Source of the DNA: Dehalococcoidia bacterium
GTDB lineage: Bacteria > Chloroflexota > Dehalococcoidia > Plut-88900
DNA length: 64,000 bases
Reading direction: 5' to 3'
Assembly: GCA_965207225.1 (NCBI GenBank)
Contig: CBDBLV010000004.1
Span: 640,001-704,000 of the forward strand
Under the pieces are notes generated by a model. The model made no database searches. It was not told the DNA's origin and worked only from the letters and a program-made list of their open reading frames with translations. The translations under genes and the position numbers were made by a program. Positions 24,697 to 42,839 of this stretch are shown here, piece by piece. The first letter of the stretch is position 1; every line of letters starts with the position of its first letter.

Positions 24697-24767
24697 GGGG
24701 ATGCCTTAGTTGCGCGAATCTGATTCGGAAGCAATAGGAAGCGGAGGGGGAGATAAATTTGGGTGCA

Positions 24768-24819
24768 GTGGTGGGCCTGAGTTGACGATAGGCAGAACCA
24801 TTTTCGAATTGTGGATGGG
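24768..24819 (+). repeat. 52-bp imperfect direct repeat, copy 1 (putative att junction)
   Basis: 44/52 identical to 41914-41965; the reverse complement of its start reads actcaggcccacca (tRNA 3'-end-like). Confidence 0.75.
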
Positions 24820-24887
24820 TGATCCAACTTCACTCCGGCGATCCTGACACCCACGTTAGTATATTACCTAGCCGCCCCACGGCCAGC

Positions 24888-24926
24888 GCAAGGGGGGCCT
24901 GCGACATTGCCGGAGGCCCCCCTTGC
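24888..24926 (-). terminator. Hairpin downstream of adhesin 1
   Basis: gcaaggggggcct...aggccccccttgc; homologous hairpin at 30647-30684. Confidence 0.6.
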
Positions 24927-24954
24927 ATCCTCTTGCCGGTCCGGCCGGGCCGGA

Positions 24955-27900
24955 CTAGTCGTCGTCCACGATGGTCATGGTTCCCACGGCGTCGGGCGGG
25001 TAGAGGGTCCCGGGCAGGTACGCCTCCACCGCGAAGTACTCGTCCGGCTCCTCATCGTCGTCGTACTCCAGCCACACCTCCGCCGTCAGCTCCGTCACCC
25101 CCGGCGCGAACACCAGCTCACCCTCCGTGTACTGATAGTCGGTCATGTGCGCCCGGTCGTCCAGCAGGTGGTACGCAGGCGCGGTGTTCCATCTGATCCT
25201 GATCTCCTCGGTGGACGCCTCGGACAGCCGCACCCGGAACTCCAGCACGTCGCCCTCCACCGCCGACGCGGCCTCGACGGTGACGGTTATCTCCACCTCC
25301 GGCGCAGCATCGTCGTTGTCTGCCACGCCGACCGTGGCCGCGCCCTGGGACGAGGACACCGTGTAGCCGCTGCCCGCGTTCACCGTCGCCGTCACCGACC
25401 CGTCGGTCTCGTCCGCGCTGTCGTCCGTGGTGCCGACGGTGAGGGTGACGCTGCCCGTGGTGGGTATCGTCACCGTGCGCTGGCCCGTGGTCGCGCCGTA
25501 GTCGCCGCTCTGGGAGACCGTGACGCTCACCGCCAGGTTGGCCGCCGGGGCCGGGATGGCCGTCACCGTGAAGACGGCGTCCCCGCCCTCGGTCACCCCG
25601 CTGCCAGCGGTGATACTCACCACCGGCGTGGGGGCGTCGTCGTTGTCGGACACCGCCACCGTGGCCGCGCCCTGGGTCGAGGACACGGTGTAGCCGCTGC
25701 CGGCGTTCACCGTGGCCGTCACCGAGCCGTCGGTCTCGTCGGCGGCGTCGTCGGTGGTGCCGACGGTGAGGGTGACGCTGCCCGTGGTGGGGACGGTCAC
25801 CGTGCGCTTCCCCGTGGCCGCGCCGTAGTCGCCGCTCTGGGAGACCGTGACGCTCACGTCCAGGTTGGACGAAGGCGCCGGGCTGGCGGTCACCGTGAAG
25901 ACGGCGTCGCCGCCCTCGGTGATGCCGTTCCCGCCGGTGACGCTCACCACCGGCGTGGGGGCGGCGTCGTTGTCGGCCACGCCGACCGTGGCCGCGCCCT
26001 GGGTCGAGGACACCGTGTAGCCGCTGCCGGCGTTCACCGTGGCCGTCACCGAGCCGTCGGTCTCGTCGGCATTGTCGTCCGTGGTGCCCACGGTGAGGGT
26101 GACGCTGCCCGTGGTGGGGACGGTCACCGTGCGCTGGCCCGTGGTCGCGCCGTAGTCGCCGCTCTGCGACACCGTGACGCTCACGTCGAGGTTGGAGGCC
26201 GGAGCCGGGCTGGCCGTCACCGTGAAGGTGGCGTCGCCGCCCTCGGTCACCACATTGCCGCCGGTGACGCTCACCTCAGGCGTGGGCGGAGGAGGCGTTT
26301 GCGTTGACGCCGCCTCCAGCGCCGTCAGCTCGGTCACCACCTCGTCCCACACCGGGCTGCTGTGTTTGTCCGCCATATCCTGGGCCTCGGACGCCGTCAT
26401 CGGGCCGCCCGTGACGCCGGCGCCGTCGTGCTCGCCGAAGGCGACGAGCACCCGGTTCCAGCGGTTCACGTGGGCCGTCCCGTGCTGCGTCTGCGACGCC
26501 AGCTCCCTGACCTTCGCGATCACGTCCGGGTCCACCGTGTAGCCCGTCTGCTCCTCAACGACCGGGTCGTCGTTGTCTGCGACGCCGGCCGTCTCCGACG
26601 ACGGCGCGCCCACCGTGTAGTCGCTGCCCGCGTTCAGCGTCAGCGTGACCGAGCCGTCCGGCTCGTCCACCTCGTCGTCCGTGGTGGCGATGGTCACCGT
26701 GGCGCTGCCCGACGTTGGGATGGTGACGCTGGTGGGCAGCGTCCCGTACCCGAAGTCGCCGGTCGTGGCGACCGTCACGCTCACCGCCAGGTTGGACGAA
26801 GGCGCCGGGCTGGCCGTCACCGTGAAGACGGCGCTGCCGCCCTCGGTGATACCAGTGCCGCCGGTAACGCTCACCACCGGCGTGGAGGCGTCGTCGTCCA
26901 GCAGCGGCAACGTGACGCGGGAAGGGTCGCCCAGCGTGTAGCCCTCGCCGACCACAATTTGCGCCACCAGCGTGCCGTCGGACAGCGCGTCGTCGTCGGA
27001 GTAGGCGATGATGGTCTGCGATGCGGACGACTCGAAGGCCTTGATGACCAGCGTGAGGAACTGTTCGCGCGCGACGCGGTCCGCACCCTCGCCCATCTCC
27101 TCGATAACGCTCACGATGACCGGCGTGTCGACCTGCGGGACCGGGCTGGCGCTGACCGTGAAGGTCACGTCGCCGCCCTCGGGCGCCGACAGCGCGTTGC
27201 TGGAGAGCGTCATCGTGGAGCCGTCGTTGAGCGTCCCCAGCGCCGAGAACGCGCGGCGGATCTCCGGCGGCGCATTGGACGGCGGCGTGAACTGGTTGCA
27301 GTCCACCTTGACGCTGAACTTGTTCGACGGCCAGCCTGACGGCGACTGCAACTGCACGCAGAACGTCACGGCCTCCCCCGGCACCTCGTCGTTGCGCAGG
27401 GTCACCGGCGTGATCGTGATCCGGTAGACCGGGTCGCCGGGGTTCGAGCGGTCGCGGTACGTGGTCTTCAGGCCGGTGTTGACGATGCCCGCTCTGTACG
27501 GCTCCTGGTTGACCACGCCGTCGTGCGCGATGACCCGGTCAACACGCCGCGAGTAGATGTACGTCGGCGGCGTATCCGTCAGGCTGTTGTCGGCCTCGAC
27601 CTTGACGCGCCACTCCGAGAAGTGCTCCTCGGCGTCGTAGAGGTCGTTGCGCGGTTTACCGGGGCTGACCAGCGGCGGGCCGGTCGGCAGGTCCCACCAC
27701 CAGTGGATGTTGAAGTAGTACTCGCACTCGCCGCCGGTCGTGTAGCTGTCGCACCTGTAGCCGACGGCGTCGCCCGCGTTCGCCAGCAGCGTGCCCGTGT
27801 AGGCCGTGTCGACCGTCAGGTCGGCGGGCTGCGGCGACTTGGTGTCCACCACCTTGACCCGCACGTCGTGCCAGGTGGTCAGGTTCCAGTCGATCCCGCG

Positions 27901-30396
27901 GCCCACCCGGTCGCGGCCGGCGAACTTGTCGCCGGGCAGCTCCAGCTCGTGCTGGATGATGTACGCGTTGTGATCTTCATGGTCGGCGCAGTGGACGTTG
28001 ACGCTGATCGTCTGCCACTGATCCCAGTTGCTGGAGTCGAAGTCCAGCGAGATGTAGGTGTTGACGGGCGGCCCGCCGGAGACCGCGTAGGTCGTGTCCT
28101 CGCCGGGCGGCCGCACGGTGATGCCGTTGCGGTAGAAGTTGGAGGCCCAGATCTCCCGTTTCCAGATCTCGTTCCAGTGGTCGCTGTCGACCGGCCCCGT
28201 GGCGAGGCTGCCCTGCCGGTAGACGACGTACTTGGGGTTGTAGACGTAGAGCTCGGCCTGGCCCGCCGGGTCGGCGTAGAGACGCACGCGGTAGGTGACC
28301 AGGTCCGTGGGGTGGGTGACGCCGCCCAGCTCGGAGACGTCGTTGGGCGCGGTATTACAGGCGGAGGGCTCGTCCACCACGATCATCCGCTGCCGTCCCT
28401 GCCAGCGGAGTAGTCCCCACTCCAGCGGTTCGTCCACATCGGCCTGCACGATCTCCAGGCGCGGCCGCTTGTCGATGCGGAAGACCGGCGAGATGCCCAG
28501 GATTGAGTGGCTCTCAACCCTCGTGGTGGAAGCGCCCACCCAGGGGTTCCGGGCTTCTCCTTCTTCGAAGGACTGGCCGCGGACGACGTGTCCGCTGCTG
28601 CCCATGCTGCTCAACGCATGTTTCGTCCCGTCCGGTTGGGTGCCGCTCCAGTGCCAGTCGACGCGGGTGTCGCTGTCGACGACCGAGACGCTGGCCGCCG
28701 TCCTGCGGTCATGTTCGGACCAGTTCTCCCACGAGCTGCTGAAGAATCCCGCCGTGTCCTTGGCCACGCGTGGGCCGTTCAGCCAGTAGATCGCCGTGTC
28801 GCGGCCCGGGTCGATGTGGTCTCGGGCGTTGACCGTGGGGGTCGATCCCACCACTTTGAACGCGTCGGAATAGGGAATGATCGCCGGGTGCGAGCCGCCG
28901 GTGTGGCTGCCGACGATGGAGTCCTGGACGTGGGCGTCGTAGTCGGCAATGTTGGCGGTGGTGGCGTCGCGCCAGGTGTTGGTCAGGAACAGCAACCGGA
29001 ACTCGCCGCCGATCCTGCGCAGCTCCTCGGGCACCAGCGGCCAGTCGGCGGGCACGGTGTAGGTGCCGTCGCCGTTCGCCTCGGGCGCCGGAGGCGGACT
29101 CTCGTCATCGATGATCGTCACCCGCAGCCAGTCGCGCTCGCCGACGTCGTAGCCGTCAAGGCCGCCGGTGAGCTTCAGGTAGAAGTGCTCGTAGTCCTCA
29201 TGGTCGGCGTCGTCCATGATCTGGACGCCGGTGGCGGTGTCCCGGTTGACCTCAACGGTCACGTTTTCCGTGCCGGCCGATATGGGCACGTCGATGTAGT
29301 CGGTGGTCACGGTGGACCCGTAGTCGTAGTCGCTGCTCTCGGTCGCGCTCCATCGACCCTGATGCGGCTCCTGGGTCCGGAGCCGCACCGTGATGTCCTG
29401 GTAGGGCGCTGGACGCGCGTACAGCACCGCCTCATAGGAATCGGTCGAGCCTTCCACCACCGCGAGGGTGGTCCCGCCGAAGCTGACGGTCGGCAGGTCG
29501 TCGTCCCGCACGATGGCGTATGCCTTCCGGGCTTCTTCCCTTCTGTCCGGCACATACTGCCTCCCATAAATGGTTGCGGGCAGGATCTCCACCAGAATCT
29601 TGCCGTCGGCTTCGCTGACGTCGTCGTCGATGATGGGGACGCACAATTCCCTACTGATGTAACCGTTGCTAACGTGTTCAGGATCGCGCAATTCTATGGA
29701 GCTGGCTTCCTCGGTAATGAAGGAGCCTTCCTGGGTGACCCGGTAGTTGATATTGGTCGGGAGAGCGACCGACCCTCCCAGGGCGGGGCGTACCCGTACT
29801 GTGAATCTTGCGCACGGGTGCGCGCCTTCGCGATAGGTGGCGCTCCGAGTGCTGGTTTGCCCTTCGGCGTAGACGCTCGCTATCGGGCGTAACCGAAGCG
29901 CCTCATGGTCAACGTCGGGGGCGTCGTCGTCCACTATGACCATCAGTGCCGACAGGATGTTCTCCATGTCCAACTGGTAATTCTTGCCCGGCTGAAGGGT
30001 CACGACGACCGATTTATCGGCATGAAAAACATCGTCGTCATTGAGAGCAACCGAGAACGCCCCCGCGGCCCGAGGCGGATCAGGAAAGAGCTGGACGAGC
30101 GTAAAGCGGTCACCTGTCTGAAGCGTGGCGTCGCCAGTCTGAAAGACGTGGTAGTTGACTTCAAGCGGGTAGATATCCTTGCCGGCGACGAAGGGGTGGC
30201 GCACCTGGATGCCATATACGAGAGAGCCGCCCTGCTCTCTCCATGTTGTTGGATTCGGGGGGATGAGCGATACGAGCGGCAGCGTATCGCTCTGCGCCTG
30301 CGCCGTCCCGGATGGCGGGCCGTCGAGCGGGAGCAGGGCTGCGAGGAGTAACGCCCCCAGGAAGCCCAGGAGTAGCCAGCGTCGAGGCTTGATCAC
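24955..30396 (-). CDS. Giant secreted surface protein/adhesin 1 (Calx-beta-like repeats, lectin-like domain, helical domain)
   Basis: Signal peptide (RRWLLLGFLGALLLAALL...AQA); 109-aa TEGG...DD.DE.DGSVT...DND repeats; the SD-linked ATG at 30443 is out of frame (see findings). Confidence 0.85.
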   Translation of the reverse strand: MIKPRRWLLLGFLGALLLAALLPLDGPPSGTAQAQSDTLPLVSLIPPNPTTWREQGGSLVYGIQVRHPFVAGKDIYPLEVNYHVFQTGDATLQTGDRFTLVQLFPDPPRAAGAFSVALNDDDVFHADKSVVVTLQPGKNYQLDMENILSALMVIVDDDAPDVDHEALRLRPIASVYAEGQTSTRSATYREGAHPCARFTVRVRPALGGSVALPTNINYRVTQEGSFITEEASSIELRDPEHVSNGYISRELCVPIIDDDVSEADGKILVEILPATIYGRQYVPDRREEARKAYAIVRDDDLPTVSFGGTTLAVVEGSTDSYEAVLYARPAPYQDITVRLRTQEPHQGRWSATESSDYDYGSTVTTDYIDVPISAGTENVTVEVNRDTATGVQIMDDADHEDYEHFYLKLTGGLDGYDVGERDWLRVTIIDDESPPPAPEANGDGTYTVPADWPLVPEELRRIGGEFRLLFLTNTWRDATTANIADYDAHVQDSIVGSHTGGSHPAIIPYSDAFKVVGSTPTVNARDHIDPGRDTAIYWLNGPRVAKDTAGFFSSSWENWSEHDRRTAASVSVVDSDTRVDWHWSGTQPDGTKHALSSMGSSGHVVRGQSFEEGEARNPWVGASTTRVESHSILGISPVFRIDKRPRLEIVQADVDEPLEWGLLRWQGRQRMIVVDEPSACNTAPNDVSELGGVTHPTDLVTYRVRLYADPAGQAELYVYNPKYVVYRQGSLATGPVDSDHWNEIWKREIWASNFYRNGITVRPPGEDTTYAVSGGPPVNTYISLDFDSSNWDQWQTISVNVHCADHEDHNAYIIQHELELPGDKFAGRDRVGRGIDWNLTTWHDVRVKVVDTKSPQPADLTVDTAYTGTLLANAGDAVGYRCDSYTTGGECEYYFNIHWWWDLPTGPPLVSPGKPRNDLYDAEEHFSEWRVKVEADNSLTDTPPTYIYSRRVDRVIAHDGVVNQEPYRAGIVNTGLKTTYRDRSNPGDPVYRITITPVTLRNDEVPGEAVTFCVQLQSPSGWPSNKFSVKVDCNQFTPPSNAPPEIRRAFSALGTLNDGSTMTLSSNALSAPEGGDVTFTVSASPVPQVDTPVIVSVIEEMGEGADRVAREQFLTLVIKAFESSASQTIIAYSDDDALSDGTLVAQIVVGEGYTLGDPSRVTLPLLDDDASTPVVSVTGGTGITEGGSAVFTVTASPAPSSNLAVSVTVATTGDFGYGTLPTSVTIPTSGSATVTIATTDDEVDEPDGSVTLTLNAGSDYTVGAPSSETAGVADNDDPVVEEQTGYTVDPDVIAKVRELASQTQHGTAHVNRWNRVLVAFGEHDGAGVTGGPMTASEAQDMADKHSSPVWDEVVTELTALEAASTQTPPPPTPEVSVTGGNVVTEGGDATFTVTASPAPASNLDVSVTVSQSGDYGATTGQRTVTVPTTGSVTLTVGTTDDNADETDGSVTATVNAGSGYTVSSTQGAATVGVADNDAAPTPVVSVTGGNGITEGGDAVFTVTASPAPSSNLDVSVTVSQSGDYGAATGKRTVTVPTTGSVTLTVGTTDDAADETDGSVTATVNAGSGYTVSSTQGAATVAVSDNDDAPTPVVSITAGSGVTEGGDAVFTVTAIPAPAANLAVSVTVSQSGDYGATTGQRTVTIPTTGSVTLTVGTTDDSADETDGSVTATVNAGSGYTVSSSQGAATVGVADNDDAAPEVEITVTVEAASAVEGDVLEFRVRLSEASTEEIRIRWNTAPAYHLLDDRAHMTDYQYTEGELVFAPGVTELTAEVWLEYDDDEEPDEYFAVEAYLPGTLYPPDAVGTMTIVDDD

Positions 30397-30646
30397 GTTT
30401 TCCCGAACGTCGGGGGGATGAATCTCCGCAGCGCGTCGGCCATGTCGTCGAACCTCCTCTTCGCCCGACTTATGCCACGACGCCGTGCGGGCGCTGGATC
30501 ACTGTATTTCAAAGCCCAAGTACGTAGCTGCCGCAAACAGCCAACCTAGACTGTCCGCCAATCTGGGCGGAGGTGTCAAGGCAATCAACCGTTCCTGTTG
30601 TTGTTCAATCGATTCCGTCCATCACCTTTACATTCCGTGGGGTAAA

Positions 30647-30684
30647 GCAAGTGGGGCCTGCATCATTGCCGCAGGCCCCCTTGC
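30647..30684 (-). terminator. Hairpin downstream of the adhesin 2/Cache gene unit
   Basis: gcaagtggggcctgc...gcaggcccccttgc, homologous to 24888-24926. Confidence 0.55.
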
Positions 30685-30688
30685 ATCC

Positions 30689-32728
30689 TCTTGCCAATCC
30701 GGCTGGGCCGGCGCAGCCCTGGGCCGGCCTATCTGATCATCCTCCCGAGCCGTCCTCTTTCCTGTCCCGTCAGCCTGACTCCGTGCTTCTCCTGCACCAT
30801 GGCTGCATCCCCATCAGGAGCGAGCCCGCAGTGTCATGGACACGGGCCGGTGGGATAGGGGTTCGGCACGCACGAAAGGGTGTCGTAGTAAATGGTCGCC
30901 AAGAACAGATTGTCGCGCCGAACCACCCAAGCGTGAGCTATCAAGTTCTCCGGCCCGTTGACGACCGCCCAGGGAATGTTGATCCAGCGGCCGGCCTCCG
31001 TTGTCTTCGATACCTCCTGGAAAGCCGGATTCCCGTCCACATCCACAAGCGGCAACTGATTGGAGTCGAATCCCACCAGATTGGGAGCGGTGCCGTTGAC
31101 GACGTAAATGCCGTTCTCGTCCAACACGGTCAGGAACCAAAGGCCGCCGGAGTTCTCCCCAGCGCCGTAAATCTCCTTCACCGCATCCATCCCCTTGCTC
31201 TCGTACACGTCAACGGCTTCCTGGATGAAATCCTGGGCGAATGCCGGCAGGTCTTTGGGGGCCGGGTAGTATCCGGAGGCGAACAGCAGTCCATCCTTTC
31301 GGACCGCGTAGGATATTTTTGTGGCCTCTCTGAGGGTTGCCGGATGAGGCCACAGGTATTCCACCCAGACACCTTCTCCCTCTCCGGCCTTGGCCAGCGC
31401 TTTGCCCAGCTCAAACCCGTCCCTCGCCACGTCTTTGATGTCGGTTCCTTTCAGGTTAGGCCGGAACGGATGGACGATGTAGATGTCGTCGGCGTCGGTA
31501 GCGAACAGATACCATTCTCCCTCAAAGGAAGCTACGCTGTCATAGTAGGCCACCATGGCGTCAACGCCGTCTTCCTCATAGCGTTTGATGGCCCGGTTCA
31601 CGTAGTCAAGGGTGTACTCGCGGGGGTCGGCTACCATCCAGGGCGGGCGTTCATCTTCCGGCAGGGGGTTGTAGTAGCCCGAGGCGAAGATCAGCCCGTC
31701 GTGTCGGATGGCCCAGGTAGTCTTGGCTTCATCCCGGCCGCTGACCGGGTTGAGCCACAGGTATTCCACCCAGTCACCCTCCTCCGTCGCCTTTGCTATA
31801 TCCTTGCCCAGTTCGTAATAGTTCCCCTCGAAGTCCTTGCCTGTCACCTCCTTGATGTCCGTCCCTCGCAGGTCATGGCGAATAGGATGCACCAGGTAGA
31901 TGTCGTTCTCATCCATCAGGAACAGATAGAAAAAGCCGTCCATGCTGTCCCGGCTGTTGTAGTGGGCGACGGTGGCTTCAAGCCCGTTCTCATCGTAATA
32001 CCGTATTGCCCTGTTCACGTAATTCTTGGTGGCGTCGCCAATGTTTTCTCGAAGGATGAAATGCCCGGCAGTGAAGATGAGGCCGTCGTGTCGGATGCCG
32101 AAGCTCCGTTTGGGTTCGAGCTGTCCGGTAAGCGGGTTGGTGGATTGGTATTCCAACCAACCTTCTCCCTCAGCTGTCGCAGCGATCCAGCCGAGCAGAA
32201 ACGCGGTGAATTCACCTGCATCTACGCCTATAAGAGGGATTCCTACTATGTCCCGACGTACCAAGGTTGCCCACGTAGTGTGGGTAGTGGGGTCGAAGAT
32301 GAACATCGACCGAACGCCTTCGAGGCTCTCCTGGCTGTTGTAGTAGGCGAGGGCGGCCTCCCGTCCGTCGCGGTCATAATGCTCGATAGCCCGCATCACG
32401 TATTCGCGGGTAAGGGCGTCGTCGTCCGGCAAGTCGGGTTCCGGCGCCGAGGTAGCCGCAGGTTCCAGCGTTGGCGTGGCCGAAGGTTCCGGGGCTGTGG
32501 TGGGCGCAGGCTCCAGCGTTGGCGTGGCCGAAGGTACCGGCGTTGCGGTGGGTTCGTCGTCGCAGGCAACGGCGAGGGCTAAAAAGGAAGCCAGAACCAG
32601 GAGCAAGGACAGTGCGCGCAGCCAGCCCGGCATCCGCCGGGTTGGCCTTCTGTTCGGTTCGCCGCCGGTTCGTTTTTCCTGCTCTGCACGCATCGCTGAT
32701 CACCTTCTTGCCAATCCGGCCGGGCCGG
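30689..32728. repeat. 23-bp direct repeats (30689-30711; 32706-32728) flanking the Cache gene
   Basis: tcttgccaatccggcYgggccgg, 1 mismatch. Confidence 0.8.
30834..32693 (-). CDS. Lipoprotein with four tandem single-Cache-like domains
   Basis: Lipobox LAVAC; four repeats of YV.RAI..Y...G...YLF..D....G.WVEY.W.NP...K......DGL.F.SGYY. Confidence 0.85.
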   Translation of the reverse strand: MRAEQEKRTGGEPNRRPTRRMPGWLRALSLLLVLASFLALAVACDDEPTATPVPSATPTLEPAPTTAPEPSATPTLEPAATSAPEPDLPDDDALTREYVMRAIEHYDRDGREAALAYYNSQESLEGVRSMFIFDPTTHTTWATLVRRDIVGIPLIGVDAGEFTAFLLGWIAATAEGEGWLEYQSTNPLTGQLEPKRSFGIRHDGLIFTAGHFILRENIGDATKNYVNRAIRYYDENGLEATVAHYNSRDSMDGFFYLFLMDENDIYLVHPIRHDLRGTDIKEVTGKDFEGNYYELGKDIAKATEEGDWVEYLWLNPVSGRDEAKTTWAIRHDGLIFASGYYNPLPEDERPPWMVADPREYTLDYVNRAIKRYEEDGVDAMVAYYDSVASFEGEWYLFATDADDIYIVHPFRPNLKGTDIKDVARDGFELGKALAKAGEGEGVWVEYLWPHPATLREATKISYAVRKDGLLFASGYYPAPKDLPAFAQDFIQEAVDVYESKGMDAVKEIYGAGENSGGLWFLTVLDENGIYVVNGTAPNLVGFDSNQLPLVDVDGNPAFQEVSKTTEAGRWINIPWAVVNGPENLIAHAWVVRRDNLFLATIYYDTLSCVPNPYPTGPCP

Positions 32729-32729
32729 A

Positions 32730-35700: not shown

Positions 35701-37973
35701 TTGGTGGTGGCCACCGTCAGCGCGGCGTAGCCCGCCGACGGGATGGTCACCGTCCGATGTTCCATGGATATCCCGGAGTCGTCGCTCTGCGACACCGTGA
35801 CGCTCACGTCCAGGTCCGCAGCCGGGGCCGGGTTGGCGCTGACCGTGAAGGTCGCGTCCCCGCCCTCGGTCACGTTGCCGTCGGCGGTCACGCTGATCAG
35901 CGGCACGGACGTGTTGGGCGCGGGCGTCTCGAAGTCCACCGTGAAGGTCTTCGGCGTCGCGCCGGCGGCCAGGGTCCGCACGGTGATCTTGTCCAGCTGG
36001 GTCGTCCCGTGAAGGACGGAGACCACGTAGTGCGACTGCGGGTCGAGGCCGGTGAGCTGGTGCTCGGTGGCGGTGGTCGTGACTTCCGTCAGGACCGGGA
36101 CGCCCGTGAAGCTCTCGTGCCAGACGACCAGGTAGGACGCGCCGTCCCCCTGCGGCTTCCAGGCGACGGTCGCCGTGGTGTCGGAGACGCGCTTGAGCTG
36201 CACCGGCGGCGGCGGCGGCAGGTCGTTGTTGGCGATATAGACCGAGGCGTAGCTCCTGAACCTGTTCAGCCGGTAGCCCTCGCCGAACTGCACCGTCGCG
36301 CCGAGCATCCCGTTGGAGCCCCAACCGGTGTCGTCGACGGTGGGGATGGTGAACGAGACGCTGCCGCCGGTGGGCACGTTGACCGTGCGCTCGCCCAGGT
36401 GCTGGGCGGCGACCACGGAGCCGGGGCCGGCCACGCCCACCCTGACGTCCAGCGGCGCGTCGGGCGCGGGGTTCACGGTGACCGTGTAGACCGCGTCCTC
36501 GCCCTCGGTGATGGTGCCGCCGGCGGCGCTGATCGACACCTCGGGCACACGCTCCACGATGACCGACGTGGGCTCCGCCTCCACCGGCGAGCCCGCCGCA
36601 AGCGTGGTGAAGCGAATCACCGGGCTGGCGGTGCTCAGCTGCGTCGCGCCGTGGTCGGCGTAGTAGACCACCGCCCGGTACTCGGTGTCCGGCTCCAGGT
36701 GGCGGATGTTCCAGGCCGGGTCGTTGGGCTCGGCCCCGAACCAGGCCTCGTCGGCCGGGACGCCGGGGAAGGGCGACGTGGTGGACCAGTAGCGCACCTC
36801 GTAGCCCTCGGCGCCGACCACCTGAGGCCAGCTCAGGTCGATGCCCGTGTCGGACAGGTTGGCGTAGCTCAGGTCGCCCACGCGCTCCACCACCGGGTCC
36901 GGCAGGTCGCCCAGCAGCCGCTGGCAGCCCACGCAGGAGCCCAGCGTGCGGTGGAAGCTGAAGCTGTCGGTGCGCACCGTCTTCGGCGGCGTCTCCGTCG
37001 AGATCTGGTTGTCGCTGCGCTCGTACAGCTTGTAGCCCTCGACCTGGAAGGTCACGTTGCCGACCACGTTGGCGCCGACGTGGACGTCGACCTGGACCGG
37101 CGTGCGGCTGACCGTGACCGAGCCGGCGCTGACGGCAGAGTCAGTTCTGAAGGTGTGCAGGTGCGAGGCGGCGGGGCTGGTGAACCAGACCCGGTGGGAC
37201 CGGAAGTACTCCGACGTGCCGCTCCGCAACAGCGGCTCGGCGAAGTCGGCGCTGATGGAGAAGCGCTTGTCCTGGTCCGCCGGCGGGTCGTTCTTCGTCC
37301 GCACCCAGAAGTAGTGCGCCTTGCGCCCCGTGTTCAGCGAGGCCGGGAAGGCCAGATTGAGCCCGCCGTCCTCGATGGACGTCCAGGTGGTCCCGTCGTC
37401 GATGGAGAACTCCAGGGTCTGCTCCCACTCGTCGTCGTCCCTGATGATGAGCGGCACCTGCACCTCGGGGTAGTCGAAGCCTCCCACCTGGTACAGCACG
37501 CCATTTTCATAGAAGTTGTGGCCGACGGCGTGGGGCCGGTGGATCAGGAACGTCCCGTGGTCGAAGGCGTCGCTGTCCTGCCCCGCGGCGAGGCTCACCG
37601 GACGCCACTTGTTGGCGTCGCTCTCGTAGACGGACTGCGACGAGAAGGGGCAGCCGTCGTGCCGGTCCAGCAGCGGGCCGGCGGTGCTGCCGTAGCCGAA
37701 ATGAATCCCATCCCGGCCAAGCCCTTCGACGATGGGGTCGCCCAGGTTGTAGGGGCTGCGGCTCCCGGTGTGGCACATCAGCCGGTCCCGGTCCGGTTTG
37801 CCCGGCCCGATGTAGCCGCCGTGGTGGCTGAGCGGCTCACCCACCTGGCTGGCGACGTAGAAGTGCCGGCGCTCGTGGGGGTCCACCGCCTGCCACTGGT
37901 AGGTCACCGCCGGGCCGCCCTCGGTCAGCGTGATCGTCGGCGGCGGGTCGTGCCTGTTGTAGTTGGCGATCAC
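32730..37973 (-). CDS. Giant surface protein/adhesin 2, C-terminal part (2 FN3-like domains, about 8 Calx-beta-like repeats, 2 helical domains)
   Basis: LSWPQV.GAEGYEVRY / LEPDTEY and LTGLDPQSHY FN3 motifs; 327-bp repeats; no signal peptide; probably the frameshifted continuation of 37970-41731. Confidence 0.85.
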   Translation of the reverse strand: MIANYNRHDPPPTITLTEGGPAVTYQWQAVDPHERRHFYVASQVGEPLSHHGGYIGPGKPDRDRLMCHTGSRSPYNLGDPIVEGLGRDGIHFGYGSTAGPLLDRHDGCPFSSQSVYESDANKWRPVSLAAGQDSDAFDHGTFLIHRPHAVGHNFYENGVLYQVGGFDYPEVQVPLIIRDDDEWEQTLEFSIDDGTTWTSIEDGGLNLAFPASLNTGRKAHYFWVRTKNDPPADQDKRFSISADFAEPLLRSGTSEYFRSHRVWFTSPAASHLHTFRTDSAVSAGSVTVSRTPVQVDVHVGANVVGNVTFQVEGYKLYERSDNQISTETPPKTVRTDSFSFHRTLGSCVGCQRLLGDLPDPVVERVGDLSYANLSDTGIDLSWPQVVGAEGYEVRYWSTTSPFPGVPADEAWFGAEPNDPAWNIRHLEPDTEYRAVVYYADHGATQLSTASPVIRFTTLAAGSPVEAEPTSVIVERVPEVSISAAGGTITEGEDAVYTVTVNPAPDAPLDVRVGVAGPGSVVAAQHLGERTVNVPTGGSVSFTIPTVDDTGWGSNGMLGATVQFGEGYRLNRFRSYASVYIANNDLPPPPPVQLKRVSDTTATVAWKPQGDGASYLVVWHESFTGVPVLTEVTTTATEHQLTGLDPQSHYVVSVLHGTTQLDKITVRTLAAGATPKTFTVDFETPAPNTSVPLISVTADGNVTEGGDATFTVSANPAPAADLDVSVTVSQSDDSGISMEHRTVTIPSAGYAALTVATTNDEVDEPDGSVTVTVDASANLDYRVSSSQGTAVVVVSDDDGGYTVNQGTIARVKELASQTQHGAAHVNRWNRVLLAFGEHDGTGVTGGPMTASEAQDMADNHSSPVWDLVVVELTALEAAAAQTPPPPPTPEVSITAGSGVTEGGDAVFTVTASPAPTANLDVSVTVSQSGDYGAATGQRTVTIPTTGSVTLTVGTTDDNADETDGSVTATVNAGSGYTVSSSQGAATVAVSDNDDASTPVVSVSAGGGITEGGSASFTVSANPAPAANLDVSVTVSQSGDYGATTGQRTVTIPTTGSVTITVGTTDDSADEADGSVTATVNAGSGYTVSSSQGAATAGVADNDDPVVEEQTGYTVDPDVIAKVRELASQTQHGTAHVNRWNRVLVAFGEHDGTGVTGGPMTAAEAQDMADKHSSPVWDEVVTELTALEAASAQTPPPPTPEVSVTAGSGITEGGDAVFTVTASPAPSSNLDVSVTVSQSGDYGATTGQRTVTIPTTGSVTLTVGTTDDTTDETDGSVTATVNAGSGYTVSSSQGAATVAVSDNDDAPTPVVSVTAGSGVTEGGDVVFTVTASPAPASNLAVSVTVSQSGDYGATTGQRTVTVPTSGSVTLTVGTTDDTTDETDGSVIATVNAGSGYTVSSSQGAATVGVSDNDDAPTPVVSVTAGSGVTEGGDAVFTVTASPAPASNLAVSVTVSQSGDYGATTGQRTVTIPTTGSVTLTVGTTDDTTDETDGSVIATVNAGSGYTVSSSQGAATVGVSDNDDAPTPVVSVTAGSGVTEGGDAVFTVTAIPAPAANLAVSVTVSQSGDYGATTGQRTVTIPTTGSVTLTVGTTDDSADETDGSVTATVNAGSGYTVSSSQGAATVGVADNDDAAPEVEITVTVEAASAVEGDVLEFRVRLSEASTEEIRIRWNTAPAYHLLDDRAHMTDYQYTEGELVFAPGVTELTAEVWLEYDDDEEPDEYFVVEAYLPGTLYPPDAVGTMTIKDDD
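33070..35310 (-). repeat. Near-identical 327-bp (109-aa) tandem coding repeats, also at ~25300-26280
   Basis: accaccggcgtgggggcgtcgtcgttgtcggacac recurs at 33394, 33721, 34048. Confidence 0.9.
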
Positions 37974-40900
37974 CCAGCCCGTCGTCGCACGTCGTTGCCC
38001 GACACCGTGCCCGCGCAGGTGCGGAACTGCACGAAGGCGTCGGCGGCCCCCAGGTTCAGGCCGATCTTGAGCGCCTCGGAGTGGGTGCTCCAGGAGACGG
38101 CGGGGTTGGGGTAGAGCGACCAGGAACTGTGGCCGTCGCCGATGCTCCAGCCCTCGGGCAGGCGCAGGCCCCGCAGGCGCTCGGAGTTCGACGCGGTGGC
38201 GCGAAGGGTGTACGTGCTGTTGGGCTGCACGGACGCGTCGTATACGTACACCCAGTAGGTGGTGTTCGGCTCCAGCCGCAGCCCCGAACCGTCGTCGCCC
38301 TGGTAGGTGAAGGTGAAGGTCCGATCGGCGCTGCCCACCGGCATGGAGGGGCGCGCCAGGTCGGCCAGGACGTCGGCGGCGGTACTGCCCGGCGAGCCGC
38401 CGGAGCCGGCCCAGATCTGTACCCTCAGATCACGGGCGGCGTTGGAGTCGCCGATCTCGGCAAACTCGACGTCGACGCTGTTGAGGCGGTAGTGGCCGCC
38501 GTTCTTGCCCGTCGTGAACGACTGCGCGCGGTCACGTACGGTACTGGCAGTCGTCACGGTCAACGCCGCGCCGTCCGCCTGGCCCAGGTTGCTCATCACC
38601 GCCGGCTCACCGGGCGGCGCGTTCACCGGCGTGGGCTCCACCCGGAACAGGGGCGAGATGCCGTAGAACGCGTGGTCCTGGGTGCTCGCGATGGTGTTGT
38701 AGCTGATGGGGCCGGTGTCCGCGTCGGTGGTCGAGAACCGTCCCCGCCGGGCGTTGCTGGCGCCCAGAGGGTTCGCCTCCTTCGCACCGTCGGTCCTGGT
38801 GCCCGTCCACGGCCAGTCGTTCGAGGTGCTCCTCTCGCCGCTCTCGAAGCGCCGGTCCGCCATCGCCCAGTTCTCCCAGGTGTCGGACCAGAAGCCGGCG
38901 TTGTTCGCCGCGACGCGCTCGCCGTTCAGCCACCAGACCTCCGCGTCCGTGTGCCCGGCGTTGTTGGGGTTGGTCCGGGTGTGGTCCCGGGCGTCCACCG
39001 CGGCGGTGGAGCCCACCACCCGGAAGTGGTCGGCGTAGCGCCGGACGGCGGCGTGCCCGTCGCGGGCCGCCTCCCGCACGTGGGCGTCGTAGACGCCGAT
39101 GTCGGCGGCGGTGGCGTCGCGGTGGTCTTCGGTCATGAACAGCAGCCGGAACGTCTCGCCCGCGCCCAGACCGAGCGGCTTCAGCGGCCAGTCGAAGGGC
39201 ACGGTGTAGGAACCGTCCGCGTGGGGCAGCAGCCGGCCGTTGACTCCCATCGACAGAGTGGAGCCGCCGACCAGGGTGATCCAGTTGCCGCCCCCCTGCG
39301 CGCGGATGCGAGCGTCGTTGTTGATGCTCCAGCCGGGCGCCGCGCCCTCGTCCTCGGAGTTGCTCTGCGTGAACTTCACCTGGCTGTTGCCTTCCGTGAG
39401 TCCGGCTGCGTCCAGCACGACCCAGTAGCGGGTGTCCGCCTCGAGCGCGACGCCCGGGTGCGTGAAGCTGTACGTGCCGGCCTGCCGGTTCACGAAGGCG
39501 GGATTGGCCAGGGTCCCCACGACCGTGCCGGGAGCCCCGTTGGCACCTTTGTGGACGGTGACCGTCAGCTTGGAGCCGAAGTCCTCGGTGGACCGGTTGA
39601 AGGCCACGTCCACGCTGGTCAGGGTGTACCCCGAGGGGTTGCCGCCGGTGTCGAAACCCTGCGCCAGGTCCACGTGCAGGCCCTGCACCAGGCCGCTCGA
39701 CTGGCCGGTGTTCTTCACCAGCGCCGGGTCGTCGTCCCGCACCCGGACCGTCGCCGTCCCCAGCGACGTGGCCAGGTCGTAGTCCGACCCGTCCACCAGC
39801 GTCACCGTGACCGAGCCGTGGGCTTCGTCCACGTCGTCGCCGGTGGTGGGGATCTCCAGCGTCGCGGTGCCCGAGTCCGGGATGGTGACGCTGGTGGGCA
39901 GGGTCCCGTACCCGAAGTCCCCGGTCGTGGCCACCGTCACGCTCACCGGCAGGTCCGCCGTGGGCGCCGGGACCGCCGTCAGCGTGAAGCTGGCGCTGAC
40001 GCCCTCGGTGACGGCGCCGCCGCCAAGGATGCTCACCCTCGACGGCCGCGGCTTGCTGACGCCGTCGAGGCTGATCTTCAGTGACGATACGTTGGGGGTC
40101 CACGCGCCCGTCGAGGAAGCCGTTCTCGTCCCGGCGCCGTCGGCGATGCTCCAGCCGGCCAGGCCCCCGCCGTCCTCGGCGTCCGAACCCGTCAGGCGTA
40201 CCCTCGAAGAACTCTGGCCGGCGTCCATGTCGATCACCAGGAAGTAGGTGGCGCTCCCCTCAAGGTCGATGCCCGCGCTGCTGGTGAAGGTCAGCGTCTG
40301 GTCCGAGGTGGAGGCGGGGAAGCTGGCGGGGTTGGTCAGGGTCCCCAGCGAGCTGCCCGGAGACCCGCCGGAGGCGGCGTGGATGCTGGCGGTCAGCGCC
40401 GAGGAACTGAAGGCGCTGTCGATGGTGGAGAACTCCACGTCGACGCTGTGCAGGCTGTAGCCGAAGCCGTTGGAGCCGGTGGTGAAGGCCTGGTGGAAGT
40501 CATTGCCCAGAAACGAGGTGCCTCCGTCCGCCTGGCCGGTGTTGGCGACGAAGGTCTCCGTCTCGACCGTCTCGACGGCCGTGCCGTGGATGGTCATCTT
40601 GCGGGACTGGCTGAACGAGGTCCAGGCGCCCGAGGTGTTCCAGGTCCGGTAGTGGCCGTCGTCGGCGATGGTCCAGCCGTCCGCGCCGCCGGCGTCCTCG
40701 GCGTCCGACCCGGTGTTCTGGATGGTGTTGGCGCCGGGCAACAGGACCAGGGTGACGTCCAGCACCGCCCAGTACGTGGTGTTCGCCGCGAGCGCCACGC
40801 CCGAGTGCGTGAAGCTGTTCGTGCCGGCGGCAATCGTGCCGGGCTTGGTCAGGGTGGCGACCACCGCGCCCGGCGCTCCGCTGCTGTCGCTTCTGATCTC

Positions 40901-41731
40901 GGCAGCCAGCTTCCCCGCCAGCCCGCCGTCGTTGATTTGCGGAAACGAGAAGTCGACGCCCGTCAGGGTGTACCCGCCGGCGTTGGCGCCCGTCGTGAAC
41001 GCCTGGGCGTGGTCGTGCTGGACGAAATTGCCGGTGCCGCCGTCCGCCTGCCCGAAGTTCGAAACCAGGAAAGGCTTGCTGACGCCGCCGAGGCTGAGTT
41101 TCGGTGATGACGTGCTGGTGGTCCATGCGGCTGTTGAGGAAAATGCTCTAAACAAAGTGCCGTCGCTGATGCTCCAACCGGCCAGGGCTCCGCTGTCCTC
41201 GGCGTCCGAAGTCGTCAAGCGCAGATTCGAAAAGGGCTCACCACTGCTAATGTCAATCACTAGGAAGTAGGTGGTACTCGCCGCAAGGTCGATGCCCGCG
41301 CTGGTGAAGGCCAGCGTCTGGTCCGAGCTGGAGACGGGAAAGCTGGCGGGCTTGGTCAGGGTCCCGAGGGAGCTGCCCGGAGACCCGCTGGAGTCGGTGT
41401 GGATGCTGGCGGTGAGGGATGAAGAGCTGAAGCCGCTGTGGATAGAGGCGAATTCCACGGCGACGCTGGTCAGGGAGTACCCACCCGGGTTGCTGCCGGT
41501 GGTGAAGGCGTGGGCGTAGTCATTGGACAGAGATGTAGCAGCCCCGTCTGCCTGGCCGGTGTTGCTGACGAAGGTCTGCGCGGTCTGCGCGTTAGCCTGC
41601 TCCGCCGGCGTCGCCGCGAACACCACCGCCAGCAGCGCGAGGGCGAGAAGCGCAATCCCAGGGCGCCTCATGAGAGAGAACCCCCACGAAATGCGGGGGG
41701 GGGGGGTGAAGCTCCGCAGCGCGTTGGTCAT
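37970..41731 (-). CDS. Giant surface protein/adhesin 2, N-terminal part (five choice-of-anchor-R-like repeats, Calx-beta-like and lectin-like domains)
   Basis: Signal peptide; five VSN.GQ.DG...AQ.FTTG.N..GY.L..V repeats; C12 tract in codons 9-13. Confidence 0.82.
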   Translation of the reverse strand: MTNALRSFTPPPRISWGFSLMRRPGIALLALALLAVVFAATPAEQANAQTAQTFVSNTGQADGAATSLSNDYAHAFTTGSNPGGYSLTSVAVEFASIHSGFSSSSLTASIHTDSSGSPGSSLGTLTKPASFPVSSSDQTLAFTSAGIDLAASTTYFLVIDISSGEPFSNLRLTTSDAEDSGALAGWSISDGTLFRAFSSTAAWTTSTSSPKLSLGGVSKPFLVSNFGQADGGTGNFVQHDHAQAFTTGANAGGYTLTGVDFSFPQINDGGLAGKLAAEIRSDSSGAPGAVVATLTKPGTIAAGTNSFTHSGVALAANTTYWAVLDVTLVLLPGANTIQNTGSDAEDAGGADGWTIADDGHYRTWNTSGAWTSFSQSRKMTIHGTAVETVETETFVANTGQADGGTSFLGNDFHQAFTTGSNGFGYSLHSVDVEFSTIDSAFSSSALTASIHAASGGSPGSSLGTLTNPASFPASTSDQTLTFTSSAGIDLEGSATYFLVIDMDAGQSSSRVRLTGSDAEDGGGLAGWSIADGAGTRTASSTGAWTPNVSSLKISLDGVSKPRPSRVSILGGGAVTEGVSASFTLTAVPAPTADLPVSVTVATTGDFGYGTLPTSVTIPDSGTATLEIPTTGDDVDEAHGSVTVTLVDGSDYDLATSLGTATVRVRDDDPALVKNTGQSSGLVQGLHVDLAQGFDTGGNPSGYTLTSVDVAFNRSTEDFGSKLTVTVHKGANGAPGTVVGTLANPAFVNRQAGTYSFTHPGVALEADTRYWVVLDAAGLTEGNSQVKFTQSNSEDEGAAPGWSINNDARIRAQGGGNWITLVGGSTLSMGVNGRLLPHADGSYTVPFDWPLKPLGLGAGETFRLLFMTEDHRDATAADIGVYDAHVREAARDGHAAVRRYADHFRVVGSTAAVDARDHTRTNPNNAGHTDAEVWWLNGERVAANNAGFWSDTWENWAMADRRFESGERSTSNDWPWTGTRTDGAKEANPLGASNARRGRFSTTDADTGPISYNTIASTQDHAFYGISPLFRVEPTPVNAPPGEPAVMSNLGQADGAALTVTTASTVRDRAQSFTTGKNGGHYRLNSVDVEFAEIGDSNAARDLRVQIWAGSGGSPGSTAADVLADLARPSMPVGSADRTFTFTYQGDDGSGLRLEPNTTYWVYVYDASVQPNSTYTLRATASNSERLRGLRLPEGWSIGDGHSSWSLYPNPAVSWSTHSEALKIGLNLGAADAFVQFRTCAGTVSGNDVRRRAG

Positions 41732-41913
41732 GTCGTCGAACCTCCTGTGTCGCCCGACTTATGCCGCGACGCCTGCGGGCGCTGGATCAGTAGTATTTCT
41801 AGCTCATGTCAATATATGTCGCAAGCGGCCAGTGTATATCATCCGCCAATCTGGGGTTCGTTGTCAATGGGGTCCGGGTTGGATTGGGGACGGAAAGGGA
41901 GGGCGGCGGCGCT

Positions 41914-41965
41914 GTGGTGGGCCTAAATTGACGTTAGGCAGAACCATCTTTGAGCTTTGGATGGG
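41914..41965 (+). repeat. 52-bp imperfect direct repeat, copy 2 (putative att junction)
   Basis: Matches 24768-24819; encodes GGPKLTLGRTIFELWMG. Confidence 0.75.
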
Positions 41966-42206
41966 GTTGTGACCGCTCGTGAGTGCTATGGATGCGATGC
42001 GTTGAGGAGGGAGGACATCGGTGCACATTGGTTTTTTGGATCACAGGGAAGAGTCTAACCGACTGATTCCGATACTGGGCACGAACTTTGGTCTATGCGA
42101 TGGGGGATCATCGGTCCGACAATCACAAAGCCCAGTTTGGCACTCAGAGACTGAGCATAGGCTTGAAGACAATATTGTTTAGATAAGTGGGAGAGAAGCG
42201 GACGAC

Positions 42207-42833: not shown

Positions 42834-42839
42834 CGTGCA

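Follow-up and report, generated by a model that had tools for sequence, protein, structure and literature searches.

The closest precedent for the elements analysed here, judged by description, is provided by the ssrA islands of Dehalococcoides, which carry a serine recombinase of ~540 aa, DsiB, at the island edge (McMurdie et al. 2011, PMC3146451). As described in the relevant sections of that paper, the 3′ end of the DsiB gene always overlaps att, so that its stop codon is placed beyond the island; a single tmRNA gene serves as the target, with the cut in the T-loop and a 20-base direct repeat; the integration module comprises six genes (DsiA, RecF-like, ParB, Mom and others); and the islands accrete in tandem, some of them without the integration module (PMC3146451). 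The idea of a gene that is complete only in the circle or beside an adjacent island was already raised in 2011, and the same authors, noting the divergent C-termini, questioned whether the overlap codes for a functional part (PMC3146451).

The CCA end of tRNA genes is a rare target for large serine recombinases (LSRs). Integrases of the archaeal SSV1 type and IntP of Myxococcus phage Mx8 have attP within the integrase gene, target a tRNA gene and undergo a change of their coding sequence upon integration; these are tyrosine recombinases with long identity segments. Serine integrases are prized for genome engineering, and we know of no classical phage enzyme of this kind with attP inside int or with a tRNA gene as its target; the enzyme of phage phiRSM1 is small and resolvase-like. 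Targeting of tRNA genes by serine recombinases, as in Mycobacterium AICEs at tRNA-Leu and phiRSM1 at tRNA-Ser, is called rare by Ghinet et al. (2011, PMC3218068), whose passages on these elements make no mention of a C-terminal swap. Such targeting by serine integrases was called unknown as of 2014 (PMC4383910), and the word “tRNA” does not occur in the accessible portion of the main LSR census (PMC10083194).

Here, we analysed a 64,000-nucleotide stretch (the window) of a Dehalococcoidia genome, for which a sequence-only reading had proposed that two 52-base repeats mark the left junctions of two related tRNA-targeting islands stacked in tandem, each repeat encoding the orphaned C-terminus of a recombinase. 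Both repeats lie where that reading placed them, copy 1 at 24769-24820 (GGPELTIGRTIFELWMG) and copy 2 at 41915-41966 (GGPKLTLGRTIFELWMG), 17,146 bases apart from start to start, with the 8 mismatches noted there in the first 51 bases, five of them in synonymous codons (att/atc, ttc/ttt, gaa/gag, ttg/ctt). A degenerate 33-base pattern matches the window exactly twice, at these two copies, compared to 0.00 matches expected from 100 shuffles. The pair is real, but the 4.03 Mb genome contains 17 copies of the repeat in all. The features of the window are as follows.

22700-24768, unstranded: native flank of the chromosome on the B side of attB, with 93% identity to G008 (as far as 24768) and 85% to G005
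23215-24696, minus strand: gene for a 493-aa NmrA/DUF2867 protein inside the native flank (Pfam)
24769-24820, plus strand: copy 1, probable P′ half-site with orphan LSR tail at an attL-type junction (tblastn to LSR C-terminus, E 4.7e-12)
24769-24776, plus strand: identity block TGGTGGGC common to attB, attL and attR of tRNA-Val(gac) (alignment)
24893-24926, unstranded: G+C-rich, terminator-like hairpin just downstream of the 1813-aa gene (inverted-repeat arm, read from sequence)
24955-30396, minus strand: 1813-aa surface-type protein rich in repeats (327-base units), cargo (weak Calx-beta match)
30834-32693, minus strand: 619-aa Cache-domain protein, cargo (domain search)
32706-41711, minus strand: two-gene surface-protein module, 1747 aa (fn3) and 1253 aa (domain search, paralog alignment)
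41732-41914, unstranded: upstream region of the surface-protein module, with no recombinase arm (homology to paralogs up to ~41900-41906)
41915-41966, plus strand: copy 2, probable P′ half-site with orphan tail (sequence, tblastn to LSR C-terminus)
54622-56535, plus strand: 637-aa Replic_Relax protein (domain search)
56487-59084, minus strand: IS21-family insertion sequence with 53-base terminal inverted repeats (IstB 56586-57380, IstA-like 57377-58957)

Similarity among the copies starts abruptly, as had been noticed, at TGGTGGGCCT. From this point, 92 bases of copy 1 match four other loci at 100%, with the match continuing for at least 1.2 kb at 92-95% identity at three of them and for 193 bases at 90% at the fourth. 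The tail frame of copy 1 (24770-24847) encodes GGPELTIGRTIFELWMGDPTSLRRS and then stops; the in-frame TAG reported ahead of it is present at 24707-24709, and the stop-to-stop frame has only 20 codons before GGP. The tail frame of copy 2 (41916-41972) encodes GGPKLTLGRTIFELWMGL, followed by a stop, at the end of a frame of 150 codons stop to stop (149 aa from a TTG start) that overlaps, in antisense, the 5′ end of the 1253-aa gene and the region upstream of it.

The suspected recombinase origin of the peptide proved right: the repeat corresponds to the last 18-25 codons of LSRs. Complete recombinase-plus-tail ORFs, contiguous and in frame, are found at two of the 17 copies (C5:379132 and C5:1925901); they span 552 and 560 codons stop to stop, with the one at C5:1925901 encoding 551 aa from ATG. 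Given that two chromosomal LSRs carry the tail, it is not confined to the excised circle, as had been supposed. The Resolvase, Recombinase and Zn_ribbon_recom domains of Pfam were detected in all four LSRs scanned, namely, the tail-bearing protein at C5:1925901, the paralog fused to tRNA-Val(gac), and one convergent pair. Altogether, the genome encodes 33 LSR paralogs (at least 44% identity), including 7 convergent pairs; none of the LSR genes is in the window.

As had been anticipated, there are LSR genes elsewhere in the genome that continue into tRNA genes of the opposite strand, at TGGTGG (CCACCA in antisense). Seven of the 33 paralogs abut tRNAs called by ARAGORN (Ile, Ala, Lys, Val-tac, Gln, Val-gac and Met), and the junction is TGGTGG in all these cases except tRNA-Gln (6/7), where it is TGGCTG; because the core identity at the latter junction is just TGG, no single crossover dinucleotide can apply to all paralogs. 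Among relatives, alpha-arm sites are joined to tRNAs in 6 of 15 cases. Across the class, counting one best locus per genome and setting aside the best loci of this genome and of G127, an LSR runs into an antisense tRNA at 19 of 28 loci, and does so at all 6 further loci. Of the 151 genomes sampled from the class, 41 contain the family, and the number of database proteins matching the LSR at E 1e-30 or better is at least 4,997. ARAGORN -m revealed no tmRNA next to an LSR at 34 class-level loci, and all resolved targets are tRNA genes. By contrast, the recombinase-into-tRNA junction expected to the right of the window does not occur on this contig, where the 4 tRNA genes are all on the plus strand and upstream of the window; the next plus-strand LSR, 30 kb beyond the window end, runs into a convergent LSR.

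Copy 1 is indeed a true left junction, that of an insertion at tRNA-Val(gac), as demonstrated by empty sites in two relatives of the same genus; an empty attB was found for this copy only. The empty attB sites of G008 and G005 consist of ...gggtgcag and ...gagagat, respectively, followed by TGGTGGGCGATACTGGACTCGAACC, which is tRNA-Val(gac); in the window, the same flank is followed by TGGTGGGC and the tail. The tRNA-Val(gac) of this genome itself resides on contig C5, fused to an LSR, and the native far flank maps from C5:1036580 downward. The location of attL and attR on different contigs implies that the region was rearranged or that the assembly is in error across a 9-kb, 98%-identical repeat; conceivably, a later exchange between near-identical island copies moved the matching LSR-tRNA-Val(gac) junction to C5. 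We consider the tRNA junctions and the empty attB to be established at the sequence level.

The best explanation, in which we have high confidence, is that the repeats are P′ half-sites of attP, together with the detached LSR tails, of islands inserted at tRNA 3′ ends. The LSR gene would be located at the right end of the island, reading outward, with its last 18-25 codons spanning the crossover point, and the chromosomal target would be a tRNA gene 3′ end in antisense orientation (CCACCA appearing as TGGTGG). Integration would keep the tRNA intact and fuse the LSR to tRNA-antisense codons, whereas the original tail would be left as an orphan at the far (left) end of the island. Such an arrangement is seen in a reference island (C5:1054270->1036574), which runs from P′ through a surface-protein module, a TraG-like gene and a Replic_Relax gene to a tRNA-fused LSR; its module is 98.3% identical over 9 kb to that at 32706-41711 of the window. 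In intact reference islands, a Replic_Relax-type gene lies directly upstream of the LSR. A tandem-type junction between an LSR and P′, at C5:1925901, adjoins an island with an LSR-tRNA-Met junction. Neither of the islands in the window can move by itself because the window contains neither an LSR gene nor a tRNA. Separately, we observed that the IS21-family element (56487-59084) occupies the spot where an LSR might be expected.

The origin of the junction at copy 2 is less clear-cut. The proposal of a recombinase-tail junction between tandem islands did not hold for this copy: its left flank is cargo, i.e., the upstream region of the surface-protein operon, rather than a recombinase arm or the native flank of a tRNA, so that a simple tandem junction is not borne out. 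The junction is bridged by contigs of run X1 from one study and of X7 and X8 from another; these were short contigs around copy 2 only, and no reads from a circular attP or an empty site were seen among them. The segment to the right, 41967-61900, has no syntenic match in 5 genomes of the same genus and, by this comparison, is accessory DNA. Copy 2 might represent the left boundary of another, distinct insertion; the first island would then have lost its LSR, coupling-protein and Replic_Relax genes, and this loss would end no more than ~10 bases from the crossover point (paralog homology extends to ~41900-41906 and P′ starts at 41915). Alternatively, and with a lower but still appreciable probability, copy 2 could be an internal relic or rearrangement scar within one composite insertion rather than the boundary of a second island, possibly produced when an LSR deleted the stretch from a pseudo-site in the cargo to an earlier recombinase-tail junction. 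Cargo reaching to ~10 bases from the core, the absence from the first island of three genes present in its 98%-identical relative (TraG-like, Replic_Relax and LSR), and the mixed arm combinations and inverted arrangements elsewhere in the genome are all in line with this scenario. However, the sequence that follows copy 2 on its right shows no relationship to the first island and has its own Replic_Relax gene, and the two copies have distinct P′ variants, which differ by 8 mismatches.

Returning to the repeats as half-sites, each would constitute the right-hand (P′) half of the attP of an LSR-moved genomic island, ordered as a 21-base arm ggttctgtctaccgtcaagtc within the LSR gene, the core TGGTGGGCCT and the inverted arm nnnTTGACGnTAGnCAGAACC (the repeat). 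Inspection by eye reveals a dyad in which the inverted P′ arm and the alpha arm are complementary at 18 of 21 positions around the 10-base core. When the empty sites of G008 and G005 are aligned with the window junction and with C5:1036575, the crossover at tRNA-Val(gac) must fall within TGGTGGGC; the dyad is centred between bases 5 and 6, which predicts GG (24773-24774) as the central dinucleotide, although both the exact dinucleotide and the symmetry are our own reading. The proximal motif [TG][GT]GA[CT] begins at base 14 in all 7 P′ sites and in 6 of the 7 tRNA half-sites, whereas GAAC begins at base 27 in 7/7 P′ sites and at base 21 in 7/7 tRNA half-sites, that is, shifted inward by 6 bases. 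No arm motif was evident by eye in the left (B) half of attB, and the att identity blocks span 3-9 bases. The site anatomy follows from these alignments; the LSRs would presumably catalyse recombination at the sites.

Another possible reading is that the tails are remains of recombinase pseudogenes cut by random deletion rather than by site-specific recombination. Although one of the 17 copies (C2:88265) does come after a decayed LSR remnant, 16 of the 17 share the same start nucleotide behind at least 8 unrelated left flanks, and the junction at copy 1 falls on exactly the base at which the tRNA ends in two empty sites, which makes such an origin very improbable.

Slimmer still are the chances of a dispersed regulatory or miniature transposable element without any link to a recombinase. 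The sequence-only reading had itself counted a dispersed repeat as evidence against islands, and the repeat is formally dispersed, with its 17 copies, many of them intergenic, in a genome that also contains other short dispersed repeats; yet, this dispersal is that of many islands and not of an unrelated repeat. The copies lack an inverted-terminal partner and are continuous in frame with LSR ORFs. Moreover, GGPxLTVDRTxFEMWLGxL, mostly as 18-19 aa, forms the C-terminal end of 53 of the 120 closest database homologs, which come from other sources, and at least 36 of the 120 have tRNA-antisense ends. In the outer tail, outside the DNA arm, the three codon positions have entropies of 0.64/0.14/0.95, so that variation is mainly at third positions and the outer tail is translated. 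We take this coding signature as firm on the codon statistics; the tail swap may have a regulatory role.

Least probable of all is the origin of the repeats as displaced tRNA 3′ fragments of tyrosine-integrase islands, given that, although their first 8-10 bases do resemble a tRNA 3′ end, as had been noted, matching in antisense those of tRNA-Ile, tRNA-Met and tRNA-Lys, identity ends there, with no cloverleaf and no tRNA likeness past base 10, with ARAGORN (0 genes) and Rfam (0 matches) detecting no tRNA or known RNA in the whole window, and with LSRs being the only recombinases found in the two reference islands C5:1054270->1036574 and C4:709009-735719 (Pfam, ORFs of at least 150-180 aa).

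The islands considered here resemble the DsiB islands, as described, in having a tRNA-like RNA gene as the target and a host of a related bacterial lineage (PMC3146451); the recombinase 3′ end overlaps att and islands in tandem occur here as well. Unlike in the DsiB islands, there is no ssrA (tmRNA) target or 20-base direct repeat but rather many tRNA genes, junctions at the CCACCA end and 3-9 shared bases; the closed tail is conserved, with a coding signature; and the reference islands carry TraG-like and Replic_Relax genes instead of the six-gene module. With the phage large serine integrases A118/LI, Bxb1 and phiC31, as covered by Rutherford et al. (2013, PMC3783163), the LSRs have in common the set of three Pfam domains, sites of ~50 bases in which inverted arms surround a short core, and a distal motif located nearer the centre in attB than in attP, the shift being 6 bases here and, for the zinc-ribbon motif of the listerial (LI) integrase, 5 bases. 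The AICEs and phiRSM1 use one tRNA each in the account of PMC3218068, compared to many tRNAs here. Unlike in the classical phage integrases known to us, attP lies inside the 3′ end of the integrase gene and attB is a tRNA end. This location of attP and the tRNA target are shared with the SSV1-type and Mx8 enzymes, from which the present system differs in employing an LSR and short identity.

A broader possibility, which we put forward tentatively and regard as rather doubtful at this point, is that, in a class-wide LSR clade, the near-universal tRNA end serves as a generic attB half-site, and a selected tail, swapped on integration, gives the enzyme a control of its own over direction or activity. 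The crossover would be provided by the CCA end and acceptor, and GAACC of the T-arm would act as the zinc-ribbon motif, 6 bases nearer the centre than in attP. A selected C-terminal peptide of 18-19 aa would extend across attP and be replaced by tRNA-antisense codons, such that the enzyme would record whether it is excised, integrated or beside another island, with no separate directionality factor.

The window itself holds two immobile scars that mark the gain of strain-specific surface-protein and polysaccharide genes. The conserved tail removed by integration offers a cheap, concrete test of the idea raised for the Dehalococcoides islands in 2011. Use of a conserved tRNA terminus as the apparent attB half-site could explain how one family colonises many tRNA loci, and could also explain the tandem arrays and the reshuffling of the chromosome, with 33 paralogs and 7 convergent pairs in this genome.

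Two 52-base repeats 17 kb apart in the window, picked out by the sequence-only reading, are both confirmed, each carrying what proves to be the detached C-terminal tail of a large serine recombinase (LSR). The two copies and the other elements discussed below are the following.

24769-24820, plus strand: copy 1, repeat with orphan tail
41915-41966, plus strand: copy 2, repeat with orphan tail
between the copies, minus strand: 1813-aa repeat protein, cargo
between the copies, minus strand: Cache-domain protein, cargo
between the copies, minus strand: two-gene module of 1747 aa (fn3) and 1253 aa, cargo
56487-59084: IS21-family element with IstA-like (526 aa) and IstB (264 aa) genes and 53-base inverted repeats, 81% complementary

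The copies differ at 8 positions within their first 51 bases, 5 of which, as had been claimed, fall in synonymous codons of the frame reading GGPELTIGRTIFELWMG and GGPKLTLGRTIFELWMG. A degenerate 33-base pattern matches at exactly these two positions of the window, where shuffled sequences give an expectation of 0.00. No credible gene is ended by either copy: the frame of copy 1 meets a TAG at 24707, 21 codons upstream, and that of copy 2 runs antisense to the start of the 1253-aa gene. Within the window, ARAGORN found no tRNA and Rfam no RNA family. Reading the repeat by eye as a sigma-70, ECF or sigma-54 promoter gave no fit and was abandoned when the coding link emerged.

The window is C4:640001-704000, and a fuzzy search of the whole assembly (4.03 Mb, 5 contigs) recovered 17 copies, 16 starting at TGGTGGGCC and 1 with a degenerate core. 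Two of the 17 extend open frames of 552 or 560 codons and one follows what is left of such a frame after decay; 7 stand behind a conserved 21-base arm, ggttcttgattttatcaagtc, and the remaining 7, including both window copies, have unrelated flanks. The domains Resolvase, Recombinase and Zn_ribbon_recom were present in all 4 LSR ORFs scanned against Pfam, namely the tail-bearing C5:1925901, an LSR fused to tRNA-Val(gac), and one convergent pair; the second tail-bearing ORF, C5:379132, is 71% identical to C5:1925901. By tblastn, the genome contains 33 LSR paralogs (at least 44% identity over more than 300 residues) and 5 distant ones, and the only LSR matches in the window are the two tails. The core of the earlier proposal, recombinase tails at tRNA-end targets, was right: tails are contiguous with LSR ORFs and LSRs abut tRNAs.

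Alignment of the gene ends reveals a constant arm within the LSR gene, followed by the core TGGTGG. Beyond the core, the sequence is the tail, a tRNA in antisense orientation or, as a third possibility, the inverted end of an LSR gene of a second class (beta), which faces the same core from the opposite side. The arm types include alpha (ggttctgtctaccgtcaagtc) and gamma (gttcgcagtatgggagtctc), the latter being the arm of both tail-bearing LSRs. Seven LSRs adjoin tRNAs called by ARAGORN (Ile-gat, Ala-tgc, Lys-ctt, Val-tac, Gln-ttg, Val-gac and Met-cat), and at 6 of these 7 junctions the core reads as the encoded CCACCA end in antisense, the Gln junction having TGG alone in common. Read in antisense, the conserved left arm (delta) corresponds to the closed tail of beta-type LSRs, which are situated across the core. 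Thus, at a delta-tail junction the orphan tails of two neighbouring islands stand back to back, the gene-less delta arms joined to tRNAs at 5 of 20 sites in relatives are accounted for, and the following convergent alpha/beta pairs are two recombinases on one common site.

Convergent LSR gene pairs in the genome studied (n = 7), the two genes on opposite strands
C3:23303-26439
C3:57433-60572
C3:85308-88435
C4:734112-737236
C4:871777-874919
C5:1960474-1963613
C5:2030765-2033889

The aligned 3' ends of each pair overlap by 52-70 bases around one common core, and each gene continues through the antisense of its partner. Such arm combinations would be expected from accretion at one tRNA end and also from exchanges between sites. 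A third type of tail (GGPKHTVLRTFRWEV...) was seen at C5:145320 and C5:1944386 and at three loci in relatives (L064, L073 and L080); its arm inverts the one found within both tail-bearing LSR genes, indicating that at least 3 arm specificities surround a single core.

When inverted, the tail arm agrees with the alpha arm at 18 of 21 positions, so that the full site consists of an arm, a 10-base core and an inverted arm, as an island attachment site (attP) should. With its centre of symmetry between bases 5 and 6 of the core, the site has GG as the predicted crossover dinucleotide. Counted from the start of the core, a proximal motif, [TG][GT]GA[CT], begins at base 14 in 7/7 tails and 6/7 tRNA half-sites; the distal GAAC begins at base 27 in all 7 tails and at base 21 in all 7 tRNA half-sites, where it is part of the T-arm. 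For the listerial (LI) integrase, the zinc-ribbon motif has been shown to sit 5 bases closer to the centre in the empty chromosomal target (attB) than in attP (Rutherford et al. 2013, PMC3783163). We infer that the T-arm may serve as the distal, zinc-ribbon motif in tRNA half-sites, which, if true, would explain the use of many different tRNAs.

The history of copy 1 can be read from relatives. The 2 kb to its left are conserved in the genus, with a match in 9 of the 11 family genomes searched, and identity to two relatives, G008 (93%) and G005 (85%), reaches the junction itself. In both relatives, the flank leads straight into TGGTGGGCGATACTGGACTCGAACC..., which is tRNA-Val(gac) in antisense, whereas in the window the same flank is followed by TGGTGGGC and then the tail. 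The tRNA-Val(gac) of the genome studied lies at C5:1036504-1036580, fused to an alpha LSR, and the sequence past this tRNA in G008 and G005 maps to C5:1036580 downward. Thus, attB is flank-TGGTGGGC-tRNA, the left junction (attL), in the window, is flank-TGGTGGGC-tail, and the right junction (attR), on C5, is arm-TGGTGGGC-tRNA; at the level of sequence comparison, copy 1 is proven to be the attL of an insertion at tRNA-Val(gac). Since attL and attR lie on different contigs, either an exchange between island copies, which have a 9-kb module in common (98.3% identity), or a mis-join of the assembly across this repeat is implied. About 360-455 bases right of tRNA-Val(gac), G008 (locus L016) has a repeat of about 90 bases that has no relation to the recombinase sites and is dispersed over many tens of loci in the genome studied and its relatives.

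Rightward from TGGTGG, copy 1 is 100% identical to four other loci over 92 query bases; in 3 of the 4, similarity persists into a paralogous surface-protein gene (92-95% over more than 1.2 kb), and in the fourth it continues over 193 bases at 90%. G+C between the copies is 0.67-0.72, versus about 0.60 in the surroundings. A reference island, C5:1054270->1036574, begins with an identical tail followed by the same two-gene module as in the window, and then encodes a TraG/TrwB-like coupling protein (884 aa), Replic_Relax (555 aa) and the LSR fused to tRNA-Val(gac); the window island lacks these last three genes. Arrays of 327-base (109-aa) repeats occupy three giant minus-strand genes (25290-27200, 33065-36526 and 39706-40026), and the first units of two of these genes are 100% identical, suggesting recent exchange between paralogs. 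Two similar G+C-rich hairpins lie in opposite orientation, at 24893-24926, downstream of the 1813-aa gene, and at 30647-30680, between the start of that gene and the end of the Cache gene.

Copy 2 does not fit the simple tandem recombinase-tail junction originally proposed for it. On its left, it is flanked by the region upstream of the module, which is common to paralogs at C2:23215 and C5:1848785 until about 10 bases before the core and contains no recombinase arm. Loss of the right part of the first island as far as the crossover point is the likelier origin of this junction; insertion of a second element at a secondary site ranks below it. The junction is bridged by contigs from the runs of two studies, X1 (41786-42898) and X7 and X8 (both from 41877), and runs containing the stretch are labelled sponge metagenome; short contigs over 40600-43600 have many joints at 40.7-41.6 kb, which are uninterpretable, with sides of less than 30 bases inside a repeat-rich gene. 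Right of copy 2, the window contains polysaccharide genes, a Replic_Relax gene directly followed by the IS21 element, and a CARDB protein gene, and no synteny of window 41967-61900 was found in 5 genomes of the same genus. A third tail, behind the conserved arm, stands at C4:709009, 5 kb past the window end, and at a distance of 25 kb beyond it are TraG-like and Replic_Relax genes and an alpha LSR running into a convergent beta LSR. Both window copies are immobile scars. A gene cluster at 46633-50706, part of the strain-specific segment and adjoining UDP-glucose dehydrogenase and epimerase genes, encodes an O-methyltransferase with WG repeats, a radical SAM/SPASM protein and a GT4 glycosyltransferase, and at least 5 tandem 132-base units (63399-64000, 90-93% identity) lie within a minus-strand ORF leaving the window end.

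The tail is conserved as a peptide. Among the best 120 of at least 4,997 database homologs (E 1e-30 or better), 53 end in GGPxLTVDRTxFEMWLGxL, mostly 18-19 residues, with T10 and F12 present in 53/53, E13 in 52/53, and W15 and G17 near-invariant. Another 36 (plus about 4 that escape the pattern) terminate in peptides encoded antisense to a tRNA, such as GGPSWTRTRDLSLIRTAL, 10 end in an inverted beta arm, and the remainder are truncated or other. Across 9 distinct sequences from the genome studied, entropy by codon position is 0.64/0.14/0.95 in the tail beyond the DNA arm, versus 0.37/0.28/0.39 in the core plus arm, indicating that the outer tail is under coding constraint. An AlphaFold2 model of the tailed LSR with 41 close homologs was unusable (mean pLDDT 46.9, tail below 50). 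The tail had been expected to be expressed only in the excised circle, an expectation contradicted by the two chromosomal LSRs that have it, at island-island junctions. SSV1-type integrases and Mx8 IntP are tyrosine-recombinase analogues of this gene-splitting idea.

Of 151 genomes sampled from the class, 41 contain the LSR family, the genome studied among them. Taking one best locus per genome (28 loci, not counting those of the genome studied and of G127), an LSR continues into an antisense tRNA (Met, Glu, Lys, Ile, Gln, Val, Ala or Asn) at 19, and also at 6/6 additional loci from small genomes, and no tmRNA adjoins an LSR at these 34 class-level loci. The alpha arm plus core was found in 6 of 30 relatives searched, all of the same family, and is absent from G005, G007 and G008.

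The nearest precedent is the ssrA islands of Dehalococcoides, which are tandem, some without integration genes, and for which the authors proposed that the recombinase gene may be whole in the circular form alone or where another island adjoins (PMC3146451). Those islands use the tmRNA gene rather than many tRNA genes, and join at a 20-base repeat in the T-loop, in contrast to the CCA end with 3-9 common bases; their tails diverge, whereas the tail here is conserved and selected, and a second recombinase class across the site is a further difference. Dehalococcoides islands have also been described at tRNA-Ala, tRNA-Val, tRNA-Lys and tRNA-Arg, together with a site-specific recombinase beside tRNA-Ala that flanks an inversion, with no mechanism given (McMurdie 2009, PMC2764846); to that extent, the phenomenon is partly in print, without mechanism. 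Of two other reports, one states that no serine integrase was known to use a tRNA gene as its target (Islander, PMC4383910) and the other that such targeting is rare, with two examples (Ghinet et al., PMC3218068). Full-text searches of main articles yielded no description of LSR crossover at the CCA end of many tRNA genes. The kind of system is already known, from one lineage-related precedent; what is new here is that tRNA ends are targeted, together with the geometry of the site and the selection on the tail, and this variant is worth a bench test.
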